A stretch of DNA of 64,000 bases from a virus. The stretch lies in IMG/VR virus record IMGVR_UViG_3300020045_002743, positions 1-64,000 of that record. The stretch is one strand, 5' to 3'. Both the position numbers and the translations under genes were made by a program. Shown one piece after another: positions 2,261-41,824 of the stretch (its first letter is position 1; each line of letters opens with the position of its first letter). Under the pieces are notes generated by a model. That model did not search any database. It was given only the letters and a program-made list of their open reading frames with translations, and was not told where the DNA came from.

Positions 2261-3012
2261 TATCTAAGAAAGATTTACAAAACATGTTGGGTTTATTTGA
2301 GGAGGATTAACCATGAACATCCTACAATTACGTGACACACTCCGCCAAGCAGAGCAAGCTTACACTAAAGCTAAAACTAGCTTGGACGGGAGTGATGAAC
2401 TAATCAATGCAAAGTCAGCTTTGAAAGATGCAAGATTTAATTATGCAGAGGCTGCAATGGATCTTGTTGAGGAAATGATAATGATGGGAGAATTGAAATG
2501 AATCCTAAATATTCAGTTGGAGAGAGGGTGATTCTTCAGAGTGTGAGCCACCCAGAATACAACGGTGAATATACAGTTTCCAAAATTATAGGTGATGGTC
2601 AAGTTTATAATTGTAGATTATCTGGAAGAGGTTTGGTGAGTGTAGATTTTGGTTATTTTCTAGATACCCCTCTTAAAGATAAACTAGAAGATTTTTGTGT
2701 AGAAGTTAAATGGGGCGAATCAGCCTTGCGAAAACGTCACGAACCTTCGCAAATGTCTTTCCAATCTCTTATCCAAAGTATCAAAAGTCCAGTGAAACAA
2801 GAGAGTTAGCCATGAAACTCCTAAAAGATATAACAACAATATTCATTATTCTATTCACATCTATCATAGCCTTAGGAGTAATTGTTGTTCTCTTTAAGGC
2901 TATCTTTGGTTCAATGGTGAATTTATTTGCGTGTATTGTGCTTGTGTTAGTGGTGAGTGTGGTGTATTCTCTTGGAAGATTGATTGTTAGGGAATATAAA
3001 TAGGGGTTTGTA

Positions 3013-6954: not shown

Positions 6955-9597
6955 TCATGACTCGCATGTACATACAACCTTCGTGGATTGACGCAGCCAG
7001 TGACCATTCAGAATGGAGTGGTGGTAATGGTCAATATCGCGGTGACAGGTCTGCTGACATTGCTACATTTGATCGCAATGGACGTGCAAGAGTAGAAGCA
7101 TTCTCAGATGATGCTATCGAGACACGTAAAAGTGCTCGTAAAACCTCTGTACCTCTCAAATCAAGAATCTTACCACAAGCTGCTAGGTTAGAAAAACTTA
7201 CAGCAGAGATTGTTGAGCTTGAAGAAGCTAATCGTAAAGGTGAGTTTACACCGGAGGAATACACACTGTTGAGGTCTGTAGCATTCGCTAAACGTGACCG
7301 TGCACAGATTCTTCTTAACAAAGCCATCAATGTACGTCCTACACACCCTCAAGAATCAACCGAACAAGATGAATTACCGATAGAATCAGCCTATGAAATC
7401 AACGATAGCCATTTAGCTAACTCCGTCTGTGGAGTAGGGATTATCGACGATTTGAGTGATGAAAATTGCCTGAAAGTATTTTTACAAAAGGCTTGCAAAG
7501 GATACAAGCTGGCTGTACACTACAAGCACAAAGCAGCAACATACATTCAATCTTTGAAGGATCTTTGAAATGAAGCAGAAAATACTAAAAAGCCTGTACA
7601 ACACTATTGAGTCTGATTTAGACGGTAAAACCCTTCTGGAGGCTGCCAAGTATCTGACAGAATTGGCTAATGGTGTATACTCTGAGATGGATGTTGTCAT
7701 TGAGTGGTCTATTAGTAACTACTCTGATGATTATGAACTTTCTCTTTTCGAGCGTAGGGATGAAACTGACGAGGAAGAAACCTCAAGGGAGTTACTAGAA
7801 AAAGCTCGAATTAAAGCAGTACTTGAACGTAAGAAGATTCAATTTGAAGCCCTCAAAAAAGAGCTTGGAGAACAATCGTGAACATCCTCCCAAATGACAT
7901 TGTATACGTCTCAAATAAATCCTCCACAGCTGTTGTATTGTGTACATACGGGCTTGACATCAAGTCTTCATCACCCTACAATAAGCATAACAAGACACAA
8001 GCTTGCCTTAAGACTCCAATCGATGGTAAGCGTTATTGGAACATTAACGATTTGAATAAGGTGGTGTGATATGGTCATTCAACTGGCTGATGGTTTTAAT
8101 GGCTCTAAAATGAATTTTGATTCCTTCCCTTTGCAGATTGAAGGGGGTCTTTTAAAACTTCAATGTTCGGATGAAGGTAAGAGCTACCTGATCAAATGGA
8201 CAACAACACAAGATTATAATCAAGCTATCCTTAACACTCTAGGTGAAACCAAATGAAACACGTCCAACAATACACTGAACAAACATCCTTCCAGAAATTC
8301 GTTAAGACATCTAAGCTAGATAGTGTAGAAGATTATAGTGATAAGAGTAGTAAACGGAATGGCTACAGCAAGCAAAGAGAATTTAAACGAGACATGTGGA
8401 GTGTTGAATAATGGACAGCAATCGTTATGAATATCTCCAAGTCTACATTAGCGGTTATGACTCTTATTGTAATTGGGGTGATACCCAACCGTGCCCATAT
8501 CAGCTTGATACTAAAGAGGCTAAGTATTGGACAGAGGGCTTTAAAGCAGCAGAACGAGATTTTTTAGGGGAGACTAAAATAATGGACATTAAAGATGTTA
8601 TGAGAGCATATGATTATGCTAATGGTTGTAACTACTTACACTGAACTACTAACTGGTGTGCTGCTGTAGCATGGTACTTAAACAATCAACTAAAAGGTAA
8701 AGGCTGATGGATATCCGAGCAACCCAAGTACGTGAACTATTTAAGAGCCGTTATCCGTGGGCTGAAGAGATTGAAGTGACAGATCGTACTGACTGGATTA
8801 GTAGTTTAACAGGTGAAGAGGCTTCTGTAGGTCCTCATTGGAAAGTAGAAGTCAATGATGATGGTGTCTGGCGTCAATTCAAACTAAAGATTAGTGTGGA
8901 GGAAGTATGAAGCTTGAAGATGTCAATGTTGTAACTCTGCCTAAAGTTGAACCTAAACAAGTCTTTGAGTGGGTTAAAACTGGTAAGTGGTCACAGAAAC
9001 AATTCATTATCTGGTGGGAGGCATACCACCGCTATATGTTTGGGTGAGTCATGAAATTCATTGAAAACAATACATACACTCTACAAACTGACTATTACAA
9101 CAGTGTTAAGGTAGTGTGTACATGGGTGACATATAACACAGCTTACTTTAAACTATCTGCGGATGATCAATCACTAGGTTCTGATTACAGGGTTGATATC
9201 CAAAGTAAGAAGCTTCATAAGTGGGACAGTAAAGGTGCTTCTTGGGACTTGATTGAGAATACATTGTCTGAAGAGACAGTAGATGATGTGTGGTCAAAAA
9301 GGGTGGGCAATGGCTCTGATTGTTATTCTTTTACAGGACAGGATTGATTATGTATTATACAAGGATTAAAGTAATTTGGCGTAAATTCCATTATACTTAC
9401 GTGTGTCAATTTAAAATTAAAAACTCCTATTCCTTCTTATTACCTTGGATAAACATGTACTCACCACTAAGCAATACCACAAACGAATTTTCATGTTTAG
9501 AAGATGCTAAAAGGCATATTGACATCTTTCTAATTTCTACTAGTGTTTCAGACTTCTTTCCGATACCTATAAAAGAAATTTCTTTTATAAACTACCC

Positions 9598-16900: not shown

Positions 16901-18455
16901 TTGACCACCTTTAGATTTGATATCTGGGTAGATTGACACTTCAATATCTTCTGGTTTAATCATTATAGAGTGTCCACAAATAGTTCAGTAACCCAAGAGT
17001 CGTACATGAATTTGAACGGATCACTATCTTTATCCATGATCCGGCTGAGTTCATACAGGTATTCTCGTGCATCTTCCTCTGTTGTCCAAATATTCTTAGA
17101 ATAGACAACGTGGAATCCGTGTGAATCTCTTTGGTATACAGCTTGGTAATATTTCATTTCCTCTCCTAATTGTTTAGTATACAATGTAAAACTTAATATT
17201 TAGCCAGAAATGCATTGTATTTAATACTTCCTCTCTTCGATTTCTACAAAGTTAAAATCTTTAGTAGCCTCTAAAACATCCTGAAGATTAGTGCACCTAC
17301 CAAAGTTATGATAACCACCATAGAGCCCTAGATGCCATCTCTTACCATCTTCTCTTACGTGACTTACTGTCCAACAAGGGAAGTCTAGGCGTTTACTGTG
17401 CTGTTCAATGGTTTCAACAATCTTATCCTTGCTCAGCCATACCCAATCCTTTGAACGGTCTCCAATGTACTGATACTCGGCCCAATTATCTGTATCGGCA
17501 CACGTTTCACAATAGGCTTTAGCTTCTAGATATTGATTGTAGTCCATTTTCTTGTAGATAATAGGTGCATACCAATATTCAGCTTTAGTTCCACACTTAC
17601 AAGTTGGTCTCATCTAACTCTCCCAATTGGTGTCCACACCCAAACTTCTCAACCTTTCAACAACCTCTTTTTGACTCTTATACGTTTCAAAATAAAGCTT
17701 ATAACAGTTATTCATTTCTTTATGTTTAACGTAATTAATCCCATAACCCTCAAACAAGTGGTAATCCACCCAACTCCAGTTCAGTGAGTCTAACACCTCC
17801 TTTCTAATTCTTACCTTAACCATATCAGCTCACCTTGTAAATCAAGTAGCCTTTATCTAAAGCGTCAGCAAGCTTCACAAGCTGCATATTTCGCTGTGGA
17901 AGGTATGTGTAATACTCCCCATCTTTCTTAACAAGGCTAAATACAGCATTCTCAACATCTGCAAAGCGAATAGATGAGATTGATTTCAATACAACTCCAT
18001 CTTGTGCTGTGTAGAATGATGTCACTCCGTTAATTGTACGTACTTTGATGTGATTGCTCATTTGTAATAAATCCCCTTCTCTCGTCGTTCAGCATCCGTA
18101 TCAAATACACCAGTCCAGTAGGCCTTTGTGTAAAACATCCAGCTTGTTTGAGTGTTAAAGTCTTGGAAGTATTTATCCAGTGTAGGGTGTAACTCAATAT
18201 CCATTCCCCAAGACTTTGCAAGGGATAGGAATGTCTGGAATTGCTCTTCGTGTGATTTGATCATTATGGCTTGTCCTTGACATTCTCAGCACCATGCTTG
18301 TATGCAGCATAAATAATCAGTGGGACAGTGACAACCCAAAAGATAGCAGCTACACAGCTTGCTTTCAAGTTGAATTTATGTCCAACAGATACACAGCAAA
18401 GAGCATCTATGTAGAGTGTTAGGATAAATCCTACAACATAGATTATAAATAACAT
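13943..18455 (-). other. Cluster of about 18 small minus-strand hypothetical genes
   Basis: Contiguous ORFs with minus-strand GGAG RBSs. Confidence 0.7.
16742..16963 (-). CDS. Stand-alone peptide-chain release factor catalytic (GGQ) domain
   Basis: KGGQHVG.TSSGV.I.HKPSG......ERSQYKNKELAL matches RF1/RF2/ArfB domain 3. Confidence 0.85.
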   Translation of the reverse strand: MIKPEDIEVSIYPDIKSKGGQHVGLTSSGVLIMHKPSGLGIVSTSERSQYKNKELALVVLELVLELNDLNVKA

Positions 18456-27600: not shown

Positions 27601-29029
27601 AGGTCTGTTTCACCAAATACTCTAGTGCTTTGTGGTAAGGCATGTTCAGGATATTTGGGCGCATAAGTAGCTCTTGGATCGTTCCCGACGAGCGATCTGG
27701 ATCAAGACCAACAAGGAATCGTATCTCGTTTTCTTTCATGTGTTTTCCTCGGTAACTTCTCTCTCTTTATTCATTTATGCAGCCCACCTTTGATAAAAAA
27801 TAGAGCAGAACCTACGAATACGGGTGCTAGTACAAAAGTTATTACGCAGGCCTTAGTGAAGGCAAAAATGCCTACAGATAACAAGCCTGAAACAATAAAA
27901 GACTGTAAGCCCTCCAGAATACATACAATCAGTCCTATATGCCACCACATCAAACAAAAATCCCAAACTTCTTTAAACCAATTTTCAAAATATTTCATCA
28001 AACCCTCCAGCAGCTATTCATATTGTAAGGTGGTACCAAATAGATTTCAGCAAATGCGTTCGCAGATTCTCTTGTGGAGAACTCAGCTAGCTTCTCACGT
28101 TTGTAAAATATTGCAAAGCGTTTCTTACCATAGGGTTTTTCTATTAGCTTAAGTTTTGTCATTGATCTTCTCCTGTGTATACGGAGATATGTGAACCTTT
28201 ATAGCAGTGATCTTCAAAATATTTAGGATCGGTATCTGTGATTCTAGAATCCTCTGCCCATTTCTTTAGGGCGTAAATTTCAATACTATTTTCCGCAACT
28301 ATGTTTAAAGTGCCGTCTGCACTCATTACTACTTTCATTTAGTCATATCCTCAATACGCTTACGCATATGTTCGTCTGTATCATACCAACCTGACAGGTA
28401 AGCTGTAAATCCACTTTCTTGCCACGAGCAATGACCGTTTGGTTTATTTTCTGGGTCATACCCGTAACACTTGCGGCTGATACCACGGATCTCTGATAGC
28501 TGATCAAGCATGTTCATGCCCGATACTCCACGCGAAAGTTCTCAATAATTATTTCATCCCCACACTGCACATCACCATTATCTAGATGTGCAAGCTCTGT
28601 ATATTCTCGTGAGAGAAATAGTTTCTTGTTACAATCACAAGAATAGTTCCCATCTTCATACATATACTCTGCACCGCCTTCCCAATGACCGTAACCGAAA
28701 TCCTGTTCGTGATAGTATGACTTACCTTCATACACAAGATCCATACAAGCTATGGTTCGATTGTGAATATCCCCCTCTCCTTCGTCGGTTACTATAGTGC
28801 CTTTTGTCCAATTTCTAGCTTTCTGTACTAAATCTTTCATTTCAGACTCTGTTTCAAAGTAATAGTACAGGGTGTCATCATGATTTTTGGTTGGTGGGTA
28901 TTCTTTAATAAACTCTTTCTGTCCACCACCCCAAGCCTTTACCATATAATTCTGCATTTCTTCTCTCCTTCTATATTTGATAGTTAAAGAATAACACAAG
29001 GTCTTTAGGAAAGCAACAGATTTTATCAA
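24680..29029 (-). other. Cluster of about 18 small minus-strand hypothetical genes
   Basis: Contiguous ORFs; 28514 ORF has EDGNYSCDCN motif; 27771 ORF is hydrophobic. Confidence 0.7.
28988..29016 (-). promoter_or_regulatory. Leftward promoter
   Basis: TTGCTT-17 bp-TATTCT on the minus strand. Confidence 0.6.
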
Positions 29030-29040
29030 ATAAATAAATC

Positions 29041-29135
29041 TTTACACAAACTCAAATACGTGTTACAATGTTGTATAGAAAGAGAGAAAATAAATTTAAA
29101 TCTCTATTGCTTTATAAGATTTTATGCTGTACAAT
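29041..29135 (+). promoter_or_regulatory. Two tandem rightward promoters
   Basis: TTTACA-17-TACAAT (29041-29069) and TTGCTT-17-TACAAT (29107-29135). Confidence 0.7.
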
Positions 29136-29141
29136 TTATTC

Positions 29142-29434
29142 ATCTACTAAAAATGTAGATCGGAACAGAGAGATATGTAGCACTCACCGTACTGTTCTTA
29201 AAAGCCTATGAAGAGAACCATGAAGGGCTAACCCGAGTAATTAGAGCTTGTTGAGGGGAAGTGGCTAGACTTACAATCTTAGGATTGTCTAGGTAAGACA
29301 AGCAATTCATCTGGCCTCAAGCCAGCCTAGTGACATCTCAATTAGGATGTACAAAGGGGAGAAGTTATGCTAAGGTTACTCCTAATGCAAATTAAATTTT
29401 GTATGGGGTTCCCTAGGCTAGTTGTAACTTCTCC
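29142..29434 (+). ncRNA. Candidate structured RNA or long leader
   Basis: ORF-free; several helices, including GGAGAAGTTA/TAACTTCTCC. Confidence 0.4.
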
Positions 29435-29503
29435 TAGCTCAAAACTCATTAGGATATTATATAACTATATCTACTTAGTAAGAATAGAGATAAGGAGAAA
29501 GAG

Positions 29504-29686
29504 ATGTATGAAGGTTTAGAAGAGCTAAAGAAAGATTATAATAAATACAATCCATACTTAGCAACAGGAGAAGATCTTGATCGTATAGGCGAGCTTTGTG
29601 GTTTAAAAAGAGAATATAATGAATGGCTAGAATCTGATAGGGATTTCAGGATTAGGGTTTTATATGAGTTAGTTAAATATATTTAA
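29504..29686 (+). CDS. 60-aa protein resembling the baseplate wedge helical motif
   Basis: ATGEDLDRIGELCGLKR...ESDRDFRIR; AAGGAG RBS. Confidence 0.7.
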   Translation: MYEGLEELKKDYNKYNPYLATGEDLDRIGELCGLKREYNEWLESDRDFRIRVLYELVKYI

Positions 29687-29694
29687 CTTAGCTA

Positions 29695-29722
29695 TTGACA
29701 TCTGTTATTCAATAGTGATACT
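29695..29722 (+). promoter_or_regulatory. sigma70-type promoter
   Basis: TTGACA-16 bp-GATACT. Confidence 0.6.
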
Positions 29723-29755
29723 CTTCATATTATAAATCAAAGAAGGAGTCCACTT

Positions 29756-29932
29756 ATGGGCGAAGCTGTATTTTGCTCGTATTGTGGCGAGCTAGAAAGT
29801 GATTGTGTATGTGATGTTGTAATTGAGTATCTAGAAGACAATGATCCTGACTTCAAATTTGAATGGGCTCATGAGTCAACGACAGAATTGAACTCAACAT
29901 CATTTAGAATTATTTTACCAATTTATGAATAA
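29756..29932 (+). CDS. 58-aa acidic Cys-motif protein (not in ORF track)
   Basis: MGEAVFCSYCGELESDCVCD...; AAGGAG RBS. Confidence 0.65.
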   Translation: MGEAVFCSYCGELESDCVCDVVIEYLEDNDPDFKFEWAHESTTELNSTSFRIILPIYE

Positions 29933-29936
29933 ATAC

Positions 29937-29965
29937 TTGACAAATAACCATTGTTCATATAAACT
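29937..29965 (+). promoter_or_regulatory. Promoter of the tRNA/ncRNA cluster
   Basis: TTGACA-17 bp-TAAACT. Confidence 0.75.
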
Positions 29966-30163
29966 AAAAGAACTGAATAAGAAAAGATTTATGCGAGGCC
30001 AGATAACCCTTTATTGGTTATCGAAAGGTAGGGCACTACTCAAGGCTGACTAATTTTGTCTGTCTCCTACACAGCTCGCACTTAACACATTCAATCTTCG
30101 TCAAGATTGTCTAATTCCCTTTAAGGGGCTTGAAGAATTCTGACGAGAGTTTAAAGTCTTCCC

Positions 30164-30313
30164 TTTGTGTGACGGAGAGCAATGAATTAGCTGAAAGGCA
30201 AAAAGAGCATGCAGTTCAATTCTGCTCGGTAGCTGAGGGTTGGTACGCAACCGTTCGATTCGGTTCTAGTCTATCTGGTGATAGAAGCTTGACTGATGGA
30301 AAGACATCACAAA
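30164..30313 (+). ncRNA. Candidate ncRNA with two T-loop hairpins
   Basis: GCAG-TTCAATT-CTGC and AACCG-TTCGATT-CGGTT; ends TTTGTG/CACAAA can pair. Confidence 0.5.
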
Positions 30314-30317
30314 TTAT

Positions 30318-30390
30318 TGGGGAGTAGCACAGCGGTAGATGCGCAAAGCTGTTAACTTTGATGTCGCAGGTTCGAATCCTGCCTCCCTAG
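30318..30390 (+). tRNA. tRNA-Asn(GTT)
   Basis: Cloverleaf; CAAAG-CT GTT AA-CTTTG; GGTTCGAATCC; CCA not fully encoded. Confidence 0.93.
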
Positions 30391-30396
30391 CCTTTC

Positions 30397-30470
30397 GCCC
30401 TTCTCGTATATTGATATTACATCTGTTTTGTAATCAGAATAAGGCAGTTTGATTCTGTCGTGGGGCACCA
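30397..30470 (+). tRNA. tRNA-Thr(TGT), somewhat degenerate
   Basis: GCCCTTC/GTGGGGC acceptor, TT TGT AA loop, TTTGATT T-loop, ACCA end. Confidence 0.75.
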
Positions 30471-30534
30471 GCTTAGAAAGCTAGATAAGCGTCGGGTAAC
30501 AGAGACTAGCGAACATATCTCGACAGCGACCAAT

Positions 30535-30611
30535 ATTCCCGTAATTCAACTGGATAGAATATCTGTCTTCTAAACAGAACGTTGCTGGATCGTACCCAGC
30601 CGGGAATACCA
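30535..30611 (+). tRNA. tRNA-Arg(TCT)
   Basis: ATTCCCG/CGGGAAT acceptor; TCTGT-CT TCT AA-ACAGA; ACCA end. Confidence 0.88.
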
Positions 30612-30616
30612 GATAT

Positions 30617-30696
30617 GCGGATGTAGGTCGCCCCTACAGCTTTAGACAAGAATTCAGAGGCATCTGAAAGATCAATTTAAAGTGGCCTCCGCACCA
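30617..30696 (+). ncRNA. CCA-terminated tRNA-like RNA without canonical arms
   Basis: GCGGA/TCCGC stem plus ACCA; internal hairpins do not form D, anticodon or T arms. Confidence 0.45.
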
Positions 30697-30703
30697 GTTT
30701 CAC

Positions 30704-30945
30704 CCACAATCACTAAGATTAAGTCTAAAAAGATTGTGGTATTCACGCTGTCATCTCCTCTCCTAAGACAGCACTTAAGATATTCTCTGTTCCTCCTCTC
30801 TCCTCGCAGAGAATATCTTCTGGCCTTGGATAGATTATACTAGTCCTCTCCTTCTAATATAATCTTCGCTAACAGGGCCATTTCTTAAGCGTTCTTCTTC
30901 ATTATGAATACTACAGGGCATAGCCGGTAAGTTCGCTTAAGAAAT
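30704..30945 (+). ncRNA. Tandem hairpin array with anti-Shine-Dalgarno loops
   Basis: Five consecutive stems; three loops contain TCTCCT. Confidence 0.6.
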
Positions 30946-30969
30946 CACTTATTCATAGGAACATACATT

Positions 30970-31383
30970 ATGGCTGGTAATTCGAAAGATAAACAGACCG
31001 ATAAGCAAAAAAGTACACAGTTCCAAGGTGAACGTAGCAATAGAAATACCAAAGGCAATAGCAAGGTTCGTATTACTAAGTCAAAACTTCGTGCAACTGC
31101 TGAAAAGCTTCGTGAGATTGAGCCTAAAGCACTTGAGAACATCAAGAATAGTGTTGAAGGTATTGAAGTTGACGCTAAACAGCTTTCAACCAGTCAATGG
31201 GTAATTACGAGCATCATTTCTCTGGACCGTGCAGCAAGCGGAGAAGAGGCAGCCTTGACCAAGATTCGTCTTGAAGGTAAGCGTACGGACGATGATGAAG
31301 ATGAGCAGAGAGAAGCTGCTGAGATTGTAAAGCTCGTACCTCGATTAAAGCTTACCTTTGATGAGCCACCCAAAGAAGATTAA
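30970..31383 (+). CDS. Probable terminase small subunit
   Basis: STQFQGERSNRNTKG N-terminal motif, helical body, position ahead of the morphogenesis block. Confidence 0.6.
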   Translation: MAGNSKDKQTDKQKSTQFQGERSNRNTKGNSKVRITKSKLRATAEKLREIEPKALENIKNSVEGIEVDAKQLSTSQWVITSIISLDRAASGEEAALTKIRLEGKRTDDDEDEQREAAEIVKLVPRLKLTFDEPPKED

Positions 31384-31527
31384 AAGAATTTGTAGTGAGC
31401 CAGTGTGAAACGGTAGGCTTTAAATGGAGCGAGTACTCCCAGCTACAAACCTAACTAGATCGTAAGGTCTGGTATCGTCCTTTGCCTAGGACACCCGGAA
31501 CCTCTGGCGGGGTTCCATCTATTCCAA

Positions 31528-31602
31528 GGGTCCATAGTTCAGTCCGGTTAGAACAGTGACCTCATAAGTCATTTGTCGTAAGTTCAAGTCTTACTGGACC
31601 CA
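31528..31602 (+). tRNA. tRNA with CAT anticodon (elongator Met or Ile2)
   Basis: GGGTCCA/TGGACCC acceptor; GTGAC-CT CAT AA-GTCAT; GTTCAAGT. Confidence 0.9.
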
Positions 31603-31619
31603 CCCCACATAAAAGGAGA

Positions 31620-31961
31620 ATGACAATGCTCACTGTAAAACGTGGGGACACTTTCGATCAACTTGTCAGTCTCCCCGATACATTTGCTGATGGCTATTTT
31701 GTAGGCTGGACAATCACATCACAGATTAGGACATCACAATACTCAAGGCTAATTTCTGAGTTTAGTCCTACATGGCTTGACCCTGTAACCACAAGAGTAG
31801 TTAAGCTTTTCATGCTTGATACACAATCTTGGCCTATTGGTATATTACAATTAGATATTCAGTTTACAAGAAACTCTGATTCCTACGTTATTAGTACACA
31901 AACTCTTGATGTAACAGTAACCAAGGATATTACCTTTCCAACTCCAGTGGTGTCTGTGTGA
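31620..31961 (+). CDS. Virion accessory/adaptor protein (Ig-like)
   Basis: KRGDTF start, beta-rich, coupled to the fibre gene. Confidence 0.55.
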   Translation: MTMLTVKRGDTFDQLVSLPDTFADGYFVGWTITSQIRTSQYSRLISEFSPTWLDPVTTRVVKLFMLDTQSWPIGILQLDIQFTRNSDSYVISTQTLDVTVTKDITFPTPVVSV

Positions 31962-34456
31962 TTGAAGTAGAATTTGCTGGTCAGTATTTCAAAGGTGATA
32001 AAGGTTTAAACTGGAAAGCTGCATATGTTAACACAACAGCTTATCTAAAAGACGATGCTGTATTTTATAATGGATCGAGTTATGTAGCTCTCCAAAACAG
32101 TACAGGAAATCTTCCAACTAATACCACTTTTTGGAGCATCCTTGCTCAGAAGGGAGATAACGGTTCCGGTTCCTCTGTCACATCTGTGAACGCTAAGATT
32201 GGAGATGTTGTCCTTGTTCCTTCTGATATTGGTGCTGCTACGTCGGCTCAAGGTGCATTAGCGAACACTGCTGTACAACCATCTGGTCTGAACAAAGCTG
32301 CTGTAGGATTATCTAACGTAGATAATACCTCAGATATTAATAAACCAATCTCTACAGCTGTTCAGTCTTCGTTAGATTTGAAAGCCCCTCTTAACTCTCC
32401 GTCCTTTACAGGTACTGTCACCGGTCTTACAAAAGCAACAGTTGGGCTAGATAATATCGACAATACTGCCGATATTGATAAACCTCTAAGTACCCTACAG
32501 ACTAACGCATTATCTCTAAAGGCACCCCTAAATTCCCCAACGTTTACGGGTACAGTGGGCGGGCTCAATAAGACGTTCGTAGGTCTTGGTTCAGTTGATA
32601 ACACTTCTGACTTAAATAAACCAGTAAGTACTGCACAACAAGCTGCACTTAATCTGAAGGCCAATGTAGAATCTCCAGCATTCACCGGGAACGTTATTGG
32701 CGTCGATAAGACAATGGTTGGCTTGTCTAATGTGGATAACACCACAGATGCAAACAAACCTATCAGTACAGCCCAAGCTGCTGCCTTGGCATTGAAAGCC
32801 CCACTGGATTCACCAGCTTTTACTGGCACGGTTACAGGATTAACTAAATCAACTGTTGGTTTAGGAAATGTTGACAATACTAGTGATCTGAATAAGCCTA
32901 TCTCAACGGCTGCTCAGGCGGCATTGAATCTAAAAGCTAACTTAGCTTCACCTACGTTCACAGGAACTGTAGGCGGGATTACAGCTAGTATGGTCGGTCT
33001 TGGTAATGTCAATAACACAGCAGACACAACCAAACCAATTTCAACAGCAACTCAAAGCGCATTAGACCTTAAGGCTCCTTTAGCCTCACCAACCTTTACA
33101 GGAACAGTGAGTGGTATTTCTGCCGCCATGGTTGGCCTAGGTAATGTAAATAATACGAGTGATGCTAACAAACCAGTAAGCTCAGCTACCCAAACAGCTC
33201 TGAACCTTAAGGCTGATTTGACAACGCTAGCTAATTATCGGCTACTTACAAACAACGCATTTACTGGAACATCTGCTGCCACTGCATTTCCTACATCTGT
33301 TGGACAATTAGCACCAACCACTAGCACAGCAATGACTTGGACACCTCTAACAGCCTCACAAGCTGTAGTCCCAGCCATGCTAACCACTCTTAACATTAAT
33401 ACAGCAACAGCTAACACTGTCACTAACAGTCATGGTATTGGTGAGCTTGTTATTACAACTGTTCAAGGTGGTGGCTATTGTGACCTGTCTTTTGCAAAAG
33501 AATATCGTTTTGCAATGCAGAATGCTAGTACAGCTGGTCAGTTCATCGGAACTAAATATGTATTTGAACCAGACAGCACTAACAGTGGTACGCTAAATAC
33601 TTTTATCACTGAACAGTTTGATAATATGACAACAAGCGTTACGTGGATTAGTAATTTCCAACGTAATTTCCTTGATCCTCGTATGGTTACATATCATGCT
33701 GGAGGACAAGTAGCGTTTGCTCAAATTATTACTGGTAATTACACGTTCACAGATAAAGATTCTGGTAAGACATTTGTCTATAATTCAGCATCTCTTGGGA
33801 CGATGACATTTGGTGCTGGTATTACCAATGGGTTTAAAGTTACAATTAAGCATGGTTTAGGTGGTGCTGGTGTAACACTTGTTTCCTCATCAAGAACAAT
33901 AGTAAACAACGCAACCCGTATTGCTTCTTTGTTTGCACTTGATGAAGTCACTGTTGAGGCTTTAGATCCAGGTGGATTCTTAACTTTAAACTGGAAAGAT
34001 CCCCTTCCAACTTATTCTGTTAATAATACAACCTCTATCACCAGAAACGTAACTACCAACAGTTCTGTATCAGATCTTACTGTAAACCTTGAAGCCAATT
34101 CTGTTTATGAAGTAAGTTTTAATTGTGCCTACACTACAACAGCTACTGCACAAAGTCTGAAACTTGGATATGCGAGTACAGCAACAGGGACTACTTTCCT
34201 ATTTGATGCTGGTGTTCAAATAACTAACGTCGCAGGTACAGCTTCTACAGTATTAGGCCCACTTAATACTACAGCAGCAACAATTGCAGGGACAGCTTCT
34301 GTTGCAAGTGTTGAGCAGAATGCTTTCATACGTGGTAAGATAATCACATCCTCAACTGCTGGTAACTTTGCTATTCAAGTAGGGGCAATCTCTACAGCTA
34401 CCACGCTGACAATAGCAATTGGTAGGGCACCGCTCTTAATCAAGAAGATTAAGTAA
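31958..34456 (+). CDS. Long fibre protein with 46-aa repeats
   Basis: VGLGNVDNTSD.NKP.STA...AL.LKA.L.SP.FTG repeats; beta-rich C-terminus. Confidence 0.85.
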   Translation: MIEVEFAGQYFKGDKGLNWKAAYVNTTAYLKDDAVFYNGSSYVALQNSTGNLPTNTTFWSILAQKGDNGSGSSVTSVNAKIGDVVLVPSDIGAATSAQGALANTAVQPSGLNKAAVGLSNVDNTSDINKPISTAVQSSLDLKAPLNSPSFTGTVTGLTKATVGLDNIDNTADIDKPLSTLQTNALSLKAPLNSPTFTGTVGGLNKTFVGLGSVDNTSDLNKPVSTAQQAALNLKANVESPAFTGNVIGVDKTMVGLSNVDNTTDANKPISTAQAAALALKAPLDSPAFTGTVTGLTKSTVGLGNVDNTSDLNKPISTAAQAALNLKANLASPTFTGTVGGITASMVGLGNVNNTADTTKPISTATQSALDLKAPLASPTFTGTVSGISAAMVGLGNVNNTSDANKPVSSATQTALNLKADLTTLANYRLLTNNAFTGTSAATAFPTSVGQLAPTTSTAMTWTPLTASQAVVPAMLTTLNINTATANTVTNSHGIGELVITTVQGGGYCDLSFAKEYRFAMQNASTAGQFIGTKYVFEPDSTNSGTLNTFITEQFDNMTTSVTWISNFQRNFLDPRMVTYHAGGQVAFAQIITGNYTFTDKDSGKTFVYNSASLGTMTFGAGITNGFKVTIKHGLGGAGVTLVSSSRTIVNNATRIASLFALDEVTVEALDPGGFLTLNWKDPLPTYSVNNTTSITRNVTTNSSVSDLTVNLEANSVYEVSFNCAYTTTATAQSLKLGYASTATGTTFLFDAGVQITNVAGTASTVLGPLNTTAATIAGTASVASVEQNAFIRGKIITSSTAGNFAIQVGAISTATTLTIAIGRAPLLIKKIK
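32300..33215 (+). repeat. About 6.6 tandem 138-nt (46-aa) coding repeats
   Basis: Visible in translation; nucleotide copies diverged. Confidence 0.85.
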
Positions 34457-37773: not shown

Positions 37774-38814
37774 TTGAATTATCAGAAAATATATCATGCT
37801 CTTGTAGAGAAAGCTAAAGTTCGCGGCCTTGATAAAACTCAACACGCTGGTTACTTTGAAATTCACCACATTCTGCCTGTTAGTTTGGGCGGTGGTAATG
37901 AAAAAGAAAATCTGGTGATGTTTACTGGACGTGAACACTTCATTGCGCACATGTTGTTGTGGAAAGCATATCCTGAAGATGTAAGTCTCCAACGAGCAGC
38001 TTGGATGATGAGCGCCCGTAATGTATGCAAAGTTAACTCTAAGCTATATTCTGCCATTCAACAAGTAAAGAGAAAAGAAGCTTCTGAGCAAATGAAAGGT
38101 CGTTACTTTAAAGATCTTACTGGAAATCGTTATGATCGTCTGGTTGTAGTTAATCAAGGGGAACATTACTATACTCCCGGCGGGCTGCAATATACTCGTT
38201 GGAATTGTATATGTGATTGTGGAAATGAGACTTTAGTCCATGCAAGCTCCCTCACTAGTGGAACTACGAGAAGTTGTGGTTGCTATGCTAAAGAGCTTAG
38301 TAAGAAAGCAAAAGGGAATCTGGAAAATATATTGCCGACACAATTTAAATCTGGTGAACATCACATCAATTTCGGTAAAAAGATGCCCAAAGAATTTGGA
38401 GAAGCAATTTCTCGCGGTAGAAAAGGCGTAAAATATTCGGAGAAAGCTTTAGAAAATTATAGGCTTTCCGGTATTGCACGTCGCGGCGAAAATAGTAGCT
38501 TATATGGTAAGCCTCGTTCTCCCGAAGTTATAAAAAAGATTTCAGATGCAAATAAAGCTTTAAACTTAAAGCCTTGGGAAGTGTCAGTTAATATTAAAGG
38601 TTTGGGTAGAGATAGGTGGTTATTGGCTGATTACTACTATGATTTGTGGATATTCTTCGATAAACCGGCAACCAAGAAGTTTGCTAAGTGTTTTAATGAA
38701 ATTCACAACGATGACACTAAGTATAGTGTCTATGTAACCATGATCAATAAATTTATTAATGGTTGGATTCCTTTAGAAGATGAGGAATGGGTAAAATTTT
38801 CTAAGGATTGTTAA
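37774..38814 (+). CDS. HNH homing endonuclease with NUMOD3-like repeats
   Basis: EIHHILP.SLGG.N..ENLV..T.REHFIAH; WNCICDCGN; YGKPRSPEV.KKIS. Confidence 0.9.
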   Translation: MNYQKIYHALVEKAKVRGLDKTQHAGYFEIHHILPVSLGGGNEKENLVMFTGREHFIAHMLLWKAYPEDVSLQRAAWMMSARNVCKVNSKLYSAIQQVKRKEASEQMKGRYFKDLTGNRYDRLVVVNQGEHYYTPGGLQYTRWNCICDCGNETLVHASSLTSGTTRSCGCYAKELSKKAKGNLENILPTQFKSGEHHINFGKKMPKEFGEAISRGRKGVKYSEKALENYRLSGIARRGENSSLYGKPRSPEVIKKISDANKALNLKPWEVSVNIKGLGRDRWLLADYYYDLWIFFDKPATKKFAKCFNEIHNDDTKYSVYVTMINKFINGWIPLEDEEWVKFSKDC

Positions 38815-40330: not shown

Positions 40331-41824
40331 ATGGTAGATACAACAGACGTCTCCCTTGAAGCTGGAGATAATGAAGCTCCAGCTTTGACTATGGGAGAGA
40401 TGGGTAGTCCTGGCCTACTAACTTTAGGCGGACAGGTGATTGAGGAGTGTAGCCTAGAACTTCGCTGGCCTGAAGCAATTAATACCTATAAGCGTATGGC
40501 AAAAGATGGGGCCATTGCCCCAGCTCTTGAGCTTGTAGAGATGATGATAGCAAGGGTTCCGTGGACTGTCAAGATTCCTGAAGGATATGAGGATCAACTT
40601 AAAGATAAAGCTAATTTTGTTCGGCAGTGCATCGGAGATATGGAGCACGACTTTCAGAGCTTTATTAAACAAGCAGTGAGCTTTAATCGATATGGCTTCG
40701 CCGTGACCGAAAAAGTTTACAGGTTTAGGAATAAAGACAAAGGAAGTAAGTACGATGATGGTTTGATAGGAATTAAAAAACTTCCTATTAGAGCACAAGA
40801 TACTGTCGAAGGATGGTATTGGACTAACAAAGGCAGAGATATTGGCGGTTTTTACCAGAGAGTTTGTAATCCCGGTAACTCTTCCTACATGGGTTGGGAT
40901 TTTGTACAAACAGCAGATAACGAAACGACCTTAAAGAAAATTCCCCGTAAAAAGTTTTTGCTTTTTAGAAACAACCCTTTGAAAAATAGTCCTGTGGGAA
41001 CTTCTCCGCTAAATGGTGCTTGGCAAGCTTGGAAGTACAAACAAGCCTATCAGGAAAGTGAAGCGATTGCAGTTGCCCAAGACTCTAATGGCTTTAAAGT
41101 TTTATATATTCCACCAGAATATATGACAACTGATGCTAGTGAAGATAAGAAAGCAGCTTTTGAAGAATACAAAAAAATATTGGCTAATATGCATCAAGCT
41201 AAACAATCTGGGGTAATCCTCCCACTGGTTCTCGATTCTGCCGGTAAAAAGATGTTTGAGCTAACTTTTGAGTCTATTACCGGTCAAAAGTCTTACGACA
41301 CTAACGCAATCATCAACAGGTATACTTCAGAAATTTTGACTGCCCTTTTTGCAGACTTCTTGTCTCTGGGTAGCAATGGTAGCGGTAGCTTCTCTTTAGC
41401 AGAATCAAAGATAAGCGTGGTGGAGATGGCAATCCAATCTAAATTAGATGAAATCAAAGCCCAACTTAATCATGACCTTATTAAACAATTGTTTGAATTG
41501 AATGGCTGGGAAACTGACGTTCTTCCTTACTTGGACTACGGTTCTGTAAGTTCAGAATCTCTTGATGAGCTTGGTAAATTCATTCAACGAGTATCTGCAA
41601 CTGGCAACCTACCAAAAGTGCCTGAAGTTATAAACTGGATTATGGCACAAGCAGATATACCTTACCGTGTTGATCTTGATCTTTCAACAGAAGACCTTAC
41701 AAAGATTTTATCTCCAGACACATCCGCCAGCGGAAGTGGACTTGAAAATGGTCTTCCATCCGGAACAGGTAATGCAGACGGTAGCTCGGGTGACTCTTCA
41801 ACTTCTAATAACGAAAACACATAG
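40331..41824 (+). CDS. Portal protein
   Basis: 497 aa after terL; NSPVG.SPL..AW..W and GS.GSFSLAE motifs. Confidence 0.88.
   Translation: MVDTTDVSLEAGDNEAPALTMGEMGSPGLLTLGGQVIEECSLELRWPEAINTYKRMAKDGAIAPALELVEMMIARVPWTVKIPEGYEDQLKDKANFVRQCIGDMEHDFQSFIKQAVSFNRYGFAVTEKVYRFRNKDKGSKYDDGLIGIKKLPIRAQDTVEGWYWTNKGRDIGGFYQRVCNPGNSSYMGWDFVQTADNETTLKKIPRKKFLLFRNNPLKNSPVGTSPLNGAWQAWKYKQAYQESEAIAVAQDSNGFKVLYIPPEYMTTDASEDKKAAFEEYKKILANMHQAKQSGVILPLVLDSAGKKMFELTFESITGQKSYDTNAIINRYTSEILTALFADFLSLGSNGSGSFSLAESKISVVEMAIQSKLDEIKAQLNHDLIKQLFELNGWETDVLPYLDYGSVSSESLDELGKFIQRVSATGNLPKVPEVINWIMAQADIPYRVDLDLSTEDLTKILSPDTSASGSGLENGLPSGTGNADGSSGDSSTSNNENT

Follow-up and report, generated by a model that had tools for sequence, protein, structure and literature searches.

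The RNAs most closely resembling the element described here are those of the cuckoo group, which comprises alpha-r14 (NfeR1, SmelC397) and RSs0680 (CcsR1-4), and is represented in Rfam by RF02344 (ar14). Cuckoo RNAs of the alpha-r14 type have two to four adjacent hairpins, with highly variable stems and the same pyrimidine anti-Shine-Dalgarno (anti-SD) motif in every loop (PMC4615179, PMC10746234). In NfeR1/alpha-r14 there are three hairpins with an identical aSD loop motif, the seeds being redundant and occluding ribosome-binding sites (RBSs) (PMC10746234; PMC4615179). Staphylococcus aureus RNAIII, with its C-rich loops H7, H13 and H14, and the actinobacterial 6C/B11 RNAs are similarly reported to be multi-hairpin RNAs in which several C-rich loops serve as seeds for SD regions (PMC2837412, PMC6486639). 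With respect to genomic setting, the nearest parallels are T4 rnaC/rnaD and PAK_P3 ncRNA1/ncRNA2 which, like the array described below, are non-tRNA RNAs located within phage tRNA clusters and ahead of late or packaging genes; those of PAK_P3 are released through processing and are abundant late in infection (PMC10914365). Our literature search returned no account of phage RNAs that carry several anti-SD loops. To our knowledge, very few trans-acting regulatory RNAs from lytic phages have been reported.

The stretch of DNA analysed here (the window, 64,000 nucleotides) covers positions 1-64,000 of an IMG/VR virus record that is complete at 91,262 bp (IMGVR_UViG_3300020045_002743; ~39% G+C). 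The large terminase of this phage is 84% identical to that of Pseudomonas phage vB_PsaM_M1 (M1), 62-65% identical to those of phiPMW and SYP, and 39% identical to those of PAK_P1-like phages. The carriers of the RNA family are a clade of uncultured ~90-kb myophages that are kin of M1. A homing-endonuclease-like ORF (37774-38814, + strand; phrog_655, E = 8e-51) lies directly upstream of, and overlaps, the large terminase gene, as it does in M1. The hairpin array sits in a + strand non-coding island between tRNA genes and a 137-aa ORF, 1.3 kb from the point where two gene blocks diverge. The features of the locus are as follows.

29695-29722: second sigma-70-like promoter candidate (consensus match only).
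29937-29965, + strand: sigma-70-like promoter candidate, TTGACA-17-TAAACT, which could drive the tRNA and non-coding RNA cluster (consensus match only).
30318-30392, + strand: tRNA-Asn, co-oriented with and upstream of the array.
30397-30467, + strand: additional (fourth) tRNA gene, scoring 43.2 bits with Rfam and missed by ARAGORN.
30535-30611, + strand: tRNA-Arg, co-oriented with and upstream of the array.
30617-30696, + strand: CCA-ended tRNA-like element, assigned from sequence and fold, its 3' CCA abutting the first base of the RNA.
30697-30704, + strand: 5' motif GUUUCACC, present in about 20 of 25 members.
30704-30739, + strand: H1, an 8-bp stem with a 20-nt A-rich loop.
30747-30772, + strand: H2, a 6-bp stem (GCTGTC/GACAGC) with loop AUCUCCUCUCCUAA, putative anti-SD loop 1.
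30777-30819, + strand: H3, a 14-bp stem with loop UCCUCCUCUCUCCUC, putative anti-SD loop 2.
30821-30880, + strand: H4, a two-part long stem (outer and inner helix) with loop UCCUCUCCUU, putative anti-SD loop 3.
30880-30945, + strand: H5, an AU-rich, perfect 12-bp base helix (AUUUCUUAAGCG/CGCUUAAGAAAU) with a branched top and without a U-tract.
30970-31383, + strand: 137-aa ORF of no recognisable family, downstream of and outside the RNA, used as synteny anchor.
31528-31604: tRNA-Met, downstream of the array.

The additional tRNA gene shares 87% identity with tRNAs found in Pseudomonas phages VCM and Kremar. The tRNA-sized element adjoining the array has an acceptor-like stem (GCGGA.../...UCCGC) and an encoded ACCA, and is without a T or anticodon arm; its site is often occupied by a true tRNA in relatives. 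Upstream of tRNA-Asn there is a non-coding module (30058-30189, + strand) that is 90-92% identical in two related contigs (L154 41-173 and L152 887-991) and, because these are distant relatives with far more diverged proteins, it is probably a second conserved structured RNA. The ORF at 30970-31383, which had been labelled terS in the original prediction, is without support for that name, as it has no Pfam or PHROG function and no homologue in GenBank phages; the neighbouring ORFs are also without a Pfam family.

The + strand of 30697-30945 folds as five abutting hairpins, which together make an element of ~250 nt, and all five of the back-to-back stems that had been predicted are present at the coordinates given for them. 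The fold of 30690-30960 has an energy of -76.1 kcal/mol (z = -6.38 versus dinucleotide shuffles, with none of 200 shuffles as good), compared with z = -2.47 for the minus strand of the same region. The H3 stem, predicted as a perfect 13 bp, does contain 13 Watson-Crick pairs, to which a closing U-G pair is to be added; the stem is semi-conserved at its base, (A)AAGA/UCUU(U). The loops of H2, H3 and H4 are pyrimidine runs with CUCUCCU in common, so bearing out the claim that the three central loops converge on one motif. On the + strand such runs are frequent only where genes lie on the minus strand, i.e. as the antisense of their RBSs; in the + coded block at 31-64 kb they are sparse, yet three occur within 100 nt in the array, each of them in a loop. 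There is one copy of the array in the genome.

The outer parts of the element are conserved in their own ways. Members of the family usually start with (A/G)GUUUCACC, often directly 3' of a tRNA CCA. The H1 stem varies among relatives (CACAATC, CCAAC, GGCACATT, GACATCA, CACAGC, GATAAGAC and others) and the loop motif is kept, with the consensus AAGA..AA(A)UUCUA..AAAG, also given as AAGA..AAAUUCUA..AAAG. The family consensus of the H4 loop is CCUCUCCU. The element is closed by H5, a conserved three-way-junction hairpin with a long, AU-rich helix (UUUCUUAAG.../...CUUAAGAAA in the family); a hairpin of this type is directly 3' of H4 in 27 of 28 members, its upper base pairs being variable. In six related loci (L132, L134, L144, L154, L158 and L171) a motif after H5, UAUUUCUCAUGUGUU, opens a long-range helix; this motif is absent from the window.

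Relatives were sought among IMG/VR contigs using the downstream 137-aa ORF as anchor, initially alone and then as a profile, which gave 32 loci with ORF protein identities of 43-92%. Upstream of the ORF, most of these loci show an abutting series of two to four hairpins, the stems being unrelated and the loops reading, for example, CCUCUCCU, CCCUCUCC and UUUCUCUCCUC; over the whole family, the range is two to six hairpins per array. Of the pyrimidine runs at the family loci, 44 of 84 are located within a stable hairpin loop, as compared with 27 of 367 at other sites in the genome of the window (Fisher p = 1e-19). The raw module gave 0 pairs with MAFFT and RNAalifold, because stem lengths differ among the relatives; since MAFFT was unable to align the unequal stems, a covariance model (R1) was seeded from the window and a 95%-identical copy (L154). 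Full-length matches of R1 to the three-hairpin core were found in 25 related IMG/VR phage loci.

In the R1 alignment 94.7% of pair cells are standard pairs, versus 56.4% with shuffled 3' partners and 37-44% with slid ones, compensatory (both-side) changes are seen in 37 of 39 pairs, and the covariation score is 0.612 versus 0.149; as the alignment is fitted to the model, pairing is somewhat inflated in these counts, with the margin being large and the raw hairpin lists being in agreement. The changes are distributed over all the helices: helix 1 (H2) is 96.2% paired with double changes in all six pairs, helix 2 (H3) is 92.6% paired with double changes in 13 of 14, and helices 3-5 (H4) are 95-96% paired with double changes in 18 of 19. 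While the stems vary, the loops are conserved, with CUCC being present in loops 2, 3 and 4 in 25, 26 and 24 of 27 rows, respectively, and UCUCCU in 21, 24 and 20; the 16S form, CCUCC, occurs in only 8, 5 and 1. This combination of unrelated stems and conserved loops was anticipated in the original prediction. The loops in the alignment are 89% pyrimidine, range in length from 7 to 22 nt with a variable position of the motif, and in some cases hold overlapping copies of it. With regard to strand, G-U/U-G pairs outnumber A-C/C-A pairs in the helices (66 versus 14), so the RNA is read from the + strand, i.e. that of the tRNAs, as had been proposed. On the comparative evidence, the array is a real, conserved and uncatalogued phage RNA family of the + strand.

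A second model (R2), built from all the R1 matches, matches only family members among the at least 118 IMG/VR loci with a 3 x CTCTCCT pattern, and gives no match in PAK_P3 and T4 (loci L013 and L174) or in the M1 tRNA region; among the pattern matches listed, most are coding repeats or lie outside hairpin loops. A match of R2 at 82.3 kb in M1 is weak and antisense to a CDS, and was taken as chance. A search of the locus against Rfam, as recommended with the original prediction, gave nothing at gathering score, and BLAST against GenBank phages gave matches only via the tRNAs. No cultured phage was found to carry the array, with the closest isolate, M1, having only one such hairpin. This single CU-loop hairpin of M1 (L001 10862-10889, positions 40861-40888 of the record; loop UGUUCUCCUC) is intergenic, is flanked by two late-type genes, and could represent what is left of an array, or a minimal version of one. 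One relative (L166 1379-1580, + strand) has two tandem arrays with five to six pyrimidine-loop hairpins. In an unrelated, G+C-rich IMG/VR contig (L119, ~8140-8245 of its + strand, with the array read minus) there are three different hairpins, with loops ACUCUCCU, ACUCUCCU and CCUCUCCUGCUC and with no R2 match; this array may be an independent analogue.

The array is independent of the ORF that follows it in the window. Seven contigs (G001-G005, G008 and G009) have no array immediately before the ORF; in all seven the array is found 1.2-3.2 kb further upstream, on the same strand and separated from the ORF by other genes, and is often directly 3' of a tRNA; because the two are this far apart in seven genomes, the array is not a leader of the 137-aa ORF. 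The gene after H5 differs from genome to genome. Comparison of the window (30693-30888) with L154 (947-1145) reveals H1-H4 to be 95% identical, though the ORF protein is only ~47% identical. In L063 (6244-6472, minus strand, versus window 30694-30948) H1, H2 and H5 are almost letter for letter those of the window, whereas in H3 and H4 the same loops are carried on entirely different stems. The hairpins appear to behave as exchangeable cassettes that recombine between phages, i.e. to undergo mosaic evolution. The L063 contig also has a group I intron (2331-2557, minus strand; Rfam 71.5 bits). The original prediction held that there is no credible + strand ORF in the array; there is in fact a 53-aa GTG ORF (30682-30843), but its reading frame is not kept in relatives, the L154 copy (95% identical) having indels of 1 and 2 nt and L063 having replaced H3 and H4 stems, which argues against a coding function.

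As to how the RNA might be produced, no consistent -35/-10 was found for a promoter of its own before GUUUCACC, no terminator-like sites were found in 28900-32100, and there is no U-tract or U run 3' of any of the five stems; the last two results also speak against the array stems as Rho-independent terminators. No self-cleaving ribozyme was detected upstream of the array at Rfam gathering score in 20 family loci. The number of sigma-70-like promoter matches, including the two candidates given above, is no higher than shuffle expectation. We infer that a ~250-nt RNA is co-transcribed with the tRNA cluster and that GUUUCACC is its 5' end, produced by tRNA 3'-trailer processing, such that release would occur directly 3' of the CCA of the preceding tRNA or tRNA-like element. 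The ...CCA|GUUUCACC junction is found in at least 8 members, with the tRNA or tRNA-like ...CCA being followed directly by GTTTCACC in 8 relatives. The sequence CCAG|UUU at the 5' motif agrees with the RN|WUU preference of RNase E. At the other end the branched H5 hairpin would terminate the RNA, either as a 3' stabiliser or as an RNase III-type processing site.

Contigs of two rhizosphere metatranscriptomes (from one study) and of one soil RNA run match positions 30696-30837, 30696-30846 and 30696-30802 at 98-99% identity. Upstream of the match their sequence is unlike that of the window, so that the 5' motif is the point at which the RNA-library contigs of relatives start to match. Two of these contigs end, within the match region, in Illumina adapter sequence, which we take to be the read-2 adapter; this hints at many short inserts ending in H4. 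The matches are evidence of presence in RNA libraries, and not proof of transcription, strand or ends, as these are contigs and the libraries may hold DNA.

The RBS consensus of the phage is (U)AAGGAGA(A/G). Among the hexamers that precede start codons AGGAGA is the most frequent, being found for 35 of 169 crude gene calls, with AGGAGG being rare. Pairing with a loop at -9 kcal/mol or lower is computed for 46% of start regions, versus 6% of random 25-mers. Loop matches of 7-11 nt include those at 17157, 4416, 85707, 40331 (portal) and 50992 (tape measure). The proposal that the loops complement AGGAGA-type RBSs is thus upheld as regards the consensus, and the portal, tape measure, 31626 and 4416 sites do match, over 6-9 nt; as single-gene targets, these are not sustained, because about half of the start regions of the phage pair with the loops. 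The loop-RBS matches are generic SD complementarity. No specific mRNA target stands out in the computed pairing with phage start regions. A preference for early/middle over late RBSs is a trend only (median -9 versus -6.9 kcal/mol, p = 0.14), and counts of the loop motif reveal no significant preference between early and late genes (p = 0.2-0.5). A role in host shutoff is not obvious, because it is the RBSs of the phage itself that match the loops best. In the non-structural gene blocks the phage RBSs are slightly better matched to the loops than to the 16S tail, and since the conserved core is CUCUCCU, not the 16S CCUCCU, an RBS complement is a more apt description than a literal mimic of the 16S tail.

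Comparison with the RNAs introduced above reveals a clear resemblance to the cuckoo group in overall design. Three adjacent hairpins, H2-H4, form the body of the phage RNA, the stems are highly variable (compensatory changes in 37 of 39 pairs) and the loops are conserved. By contrast, the core in the phage is CUCUCCU, and the cuckoo loop motif CCUCCUCCC is in none of the loops listed from the alignment; ar14 (RF02344), the only Rfam family scoring at the locus, reaches 24 bits versus a gathering score of 58.8 (E = 0.06). The settings also differ, the phage RNA being encoded in a lytic-phage tRNA cluster with Pseudomonas-phage kinship, whereas cuckoo RNAs occur on alphaproteobacterial replicons, often beside the conserved OG1 gene. 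The phage RNA lacks a terminator-like last hairpin with a U-tract, and has extra conserved domains, i.e. H1 with its A-rich loop and the branched H5. The phage RNA may well work like a cuckoo RNA, yet judged from the differences in motif and Rfam score it is not a member of that family. RNAIII and 6C/B11 have no sequence or Rfam likeness to the phage RNA, have loop motifs that are UCCC or C-rich rather than CUCUCCU, and are cellular, with promoters and terminators of their own. PAK_P3 ncRNA1/ncRNA2 and T4 rnaC/rnaD were rejected as homologues in that, although alike in setting, they are without the pyrimidine-loop array and give no R2 match, and their folds show tRNA-like arms. The CsrB/RsmY/RsmZ sponges also have many hairpins with one short loop motif; that motif is, however, a protein-binding GGA, which in the phage would be on the untranscribed strand, the + strand loops being predominantly pyrimidine.

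The RNA probably regulates translation on behalf of the phage. An anti-SD function is plausible and well precedented. That the RNA is processed and acts in trans through three redundant anti-SD seeds, in the manner of the cuckoo/alpha-r14 (NfeR1, CcsR) sRNAs and of RNAIII, is a reading that we regard as evenly poised between right and wrong, the cuckoo/alpha-r14 precedent and the linear-seed-like loops being the reasons for placing it there. The working parts would be H2-H4, the stems of which evolve freely, with each loop keeping a single-stranded CUCUCCU core. We infer that each loop acts in trans as a redundant anti-SD seed, pairing with the GGAG/AGGAGA RBSs of phage or host mRNAs and so blocking 30S binding, in the way established for NfeR1 (alpha-r14), through its three aSD loops, and for RNAIII, through its C-rich loops. 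The anti-SD model does not account for H1, with its A-rich loop, or for the branched H5, both of which are likewise conserved.

Among the other explanations, it is unlikely, though not negligibly so, that the CUCUCCU loops bind a pyrimidine-binding protein (e.g. ribosomal protein S1, a cold-shock protein, Hfq or a phage RNA-binding protein), so titrating or recruiting it, as CsrB does CsrA. The display in loops of three to six copies of one short motif would suit such a decoy or scaffold, as would the failure of any specific mRNA target to emerge, and the conservation of H1 and H5 as further domains points beyond a simple antisense RNA. However, because loop size (7-22 nt) and motif position vary widely, with copies overlapping in some loops, a linear pairing seed fits better than a shaped protein site; moreover, no candidate protein is linked to the locus, the neighbouring genes of which differ between genomes. 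It is more improbable that the array is an element acting in cis on the tRNA and late-gene transcript, for its processing, stability or insulation, in which the hairpins would provide RNase III/RNase E sites or exonuclease blocks and the released piece would be functionless. The position between tRNAs and protein genes, the want of a promoter or terminator of its own, and the nature of H5 as a long duplex without a U-tract are all compatible with this, and the PAK_P3 ncRNA1 and ncRNA2 are likewise processed 3'-UTR pieces (PMC10914365). Against it, selection is on loop sequence and not on stems, a structural block having no need of CUCUCCU in three loops, and the form of the array is kept whatever gene comes next.

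The remaining alternatives are considerably weaker candidates. Pseudomonas uses RsmY and RsmZ, and the relatives of the phage infect Pseudomonas; as UCCU complements AGGA, the loops might pair with host sRNAs of this GGA-loop type, or with other purine-rich RNAs, rather than with the RBSs of mRNAs, so rewiring the Rsm/Csr network. The conserved core of 7 nt (CUCUCCU, i.e. anti-AGGAGAG), however, exceeds what an A(N)GGA loop can pair, and we consider such capture very unlikely. A minus-strand transcript, which had been offered in the original prediction as a CsrA/RsmA sponge with AGGA loops, would present AGGAGAG loops, each carrying one to three GGA motifs; it is disfavoured by the excess of G-U over A-C pairs in the helices (66 versus 14), by the fold z-scores (-2.5 for the minus strand versus -6.4 for the + strand), and by the fact that all the flanking tRNAs and genes, and the conserved tRNA-CCA|GUUUCACC junction, are on the + strand, such that its probability is slight indeed. 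Least probable, by a small margin, is a DNA-level element, i.e. inverted repeats for packaging, replication or recombination, despite the divergence of two gene blocks 1.3 kb away and the exchange of hairpin cassettes between phages, since G-U pairing is preserved for one strand alone, conservation falls on the single-stranded loops and not on the variable stems, and the array is linked to tRNA genes.

Returning to the trans-acting anti-SD RNA, it may be, although we regard this as rather doubtful, that it serves as a global translation switch: an abundant RNA, released from a tRNA precursor, in which at least three redundant CUCUCCU loops mask AGGAGA-type RBSs, those of the phage itself included, so timing the early-to-late shift or shutting off competing translation, with the hairpins as recombining cassettes. 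An RNA would then be doing what T4 does with the proteins RegB and RegA. Comparative support for the family is strong, and the hypothesis is clear and can be tested by mutating three loops of one motif. An Rfam entry for the family is possible, and would enable better annotation of apparently 'empty' tRNA-cluster regions in many metagenomic phages. If the proposed role is confirmed, it would mean that phages control translation initiation by means of an RNA that competes with the ribosome for Shine-Dalgarno sequences, and that they have converged in this regard with regulators from three bacterial phyla, namely the cuckoo RNAs, RNAIII and 6C.
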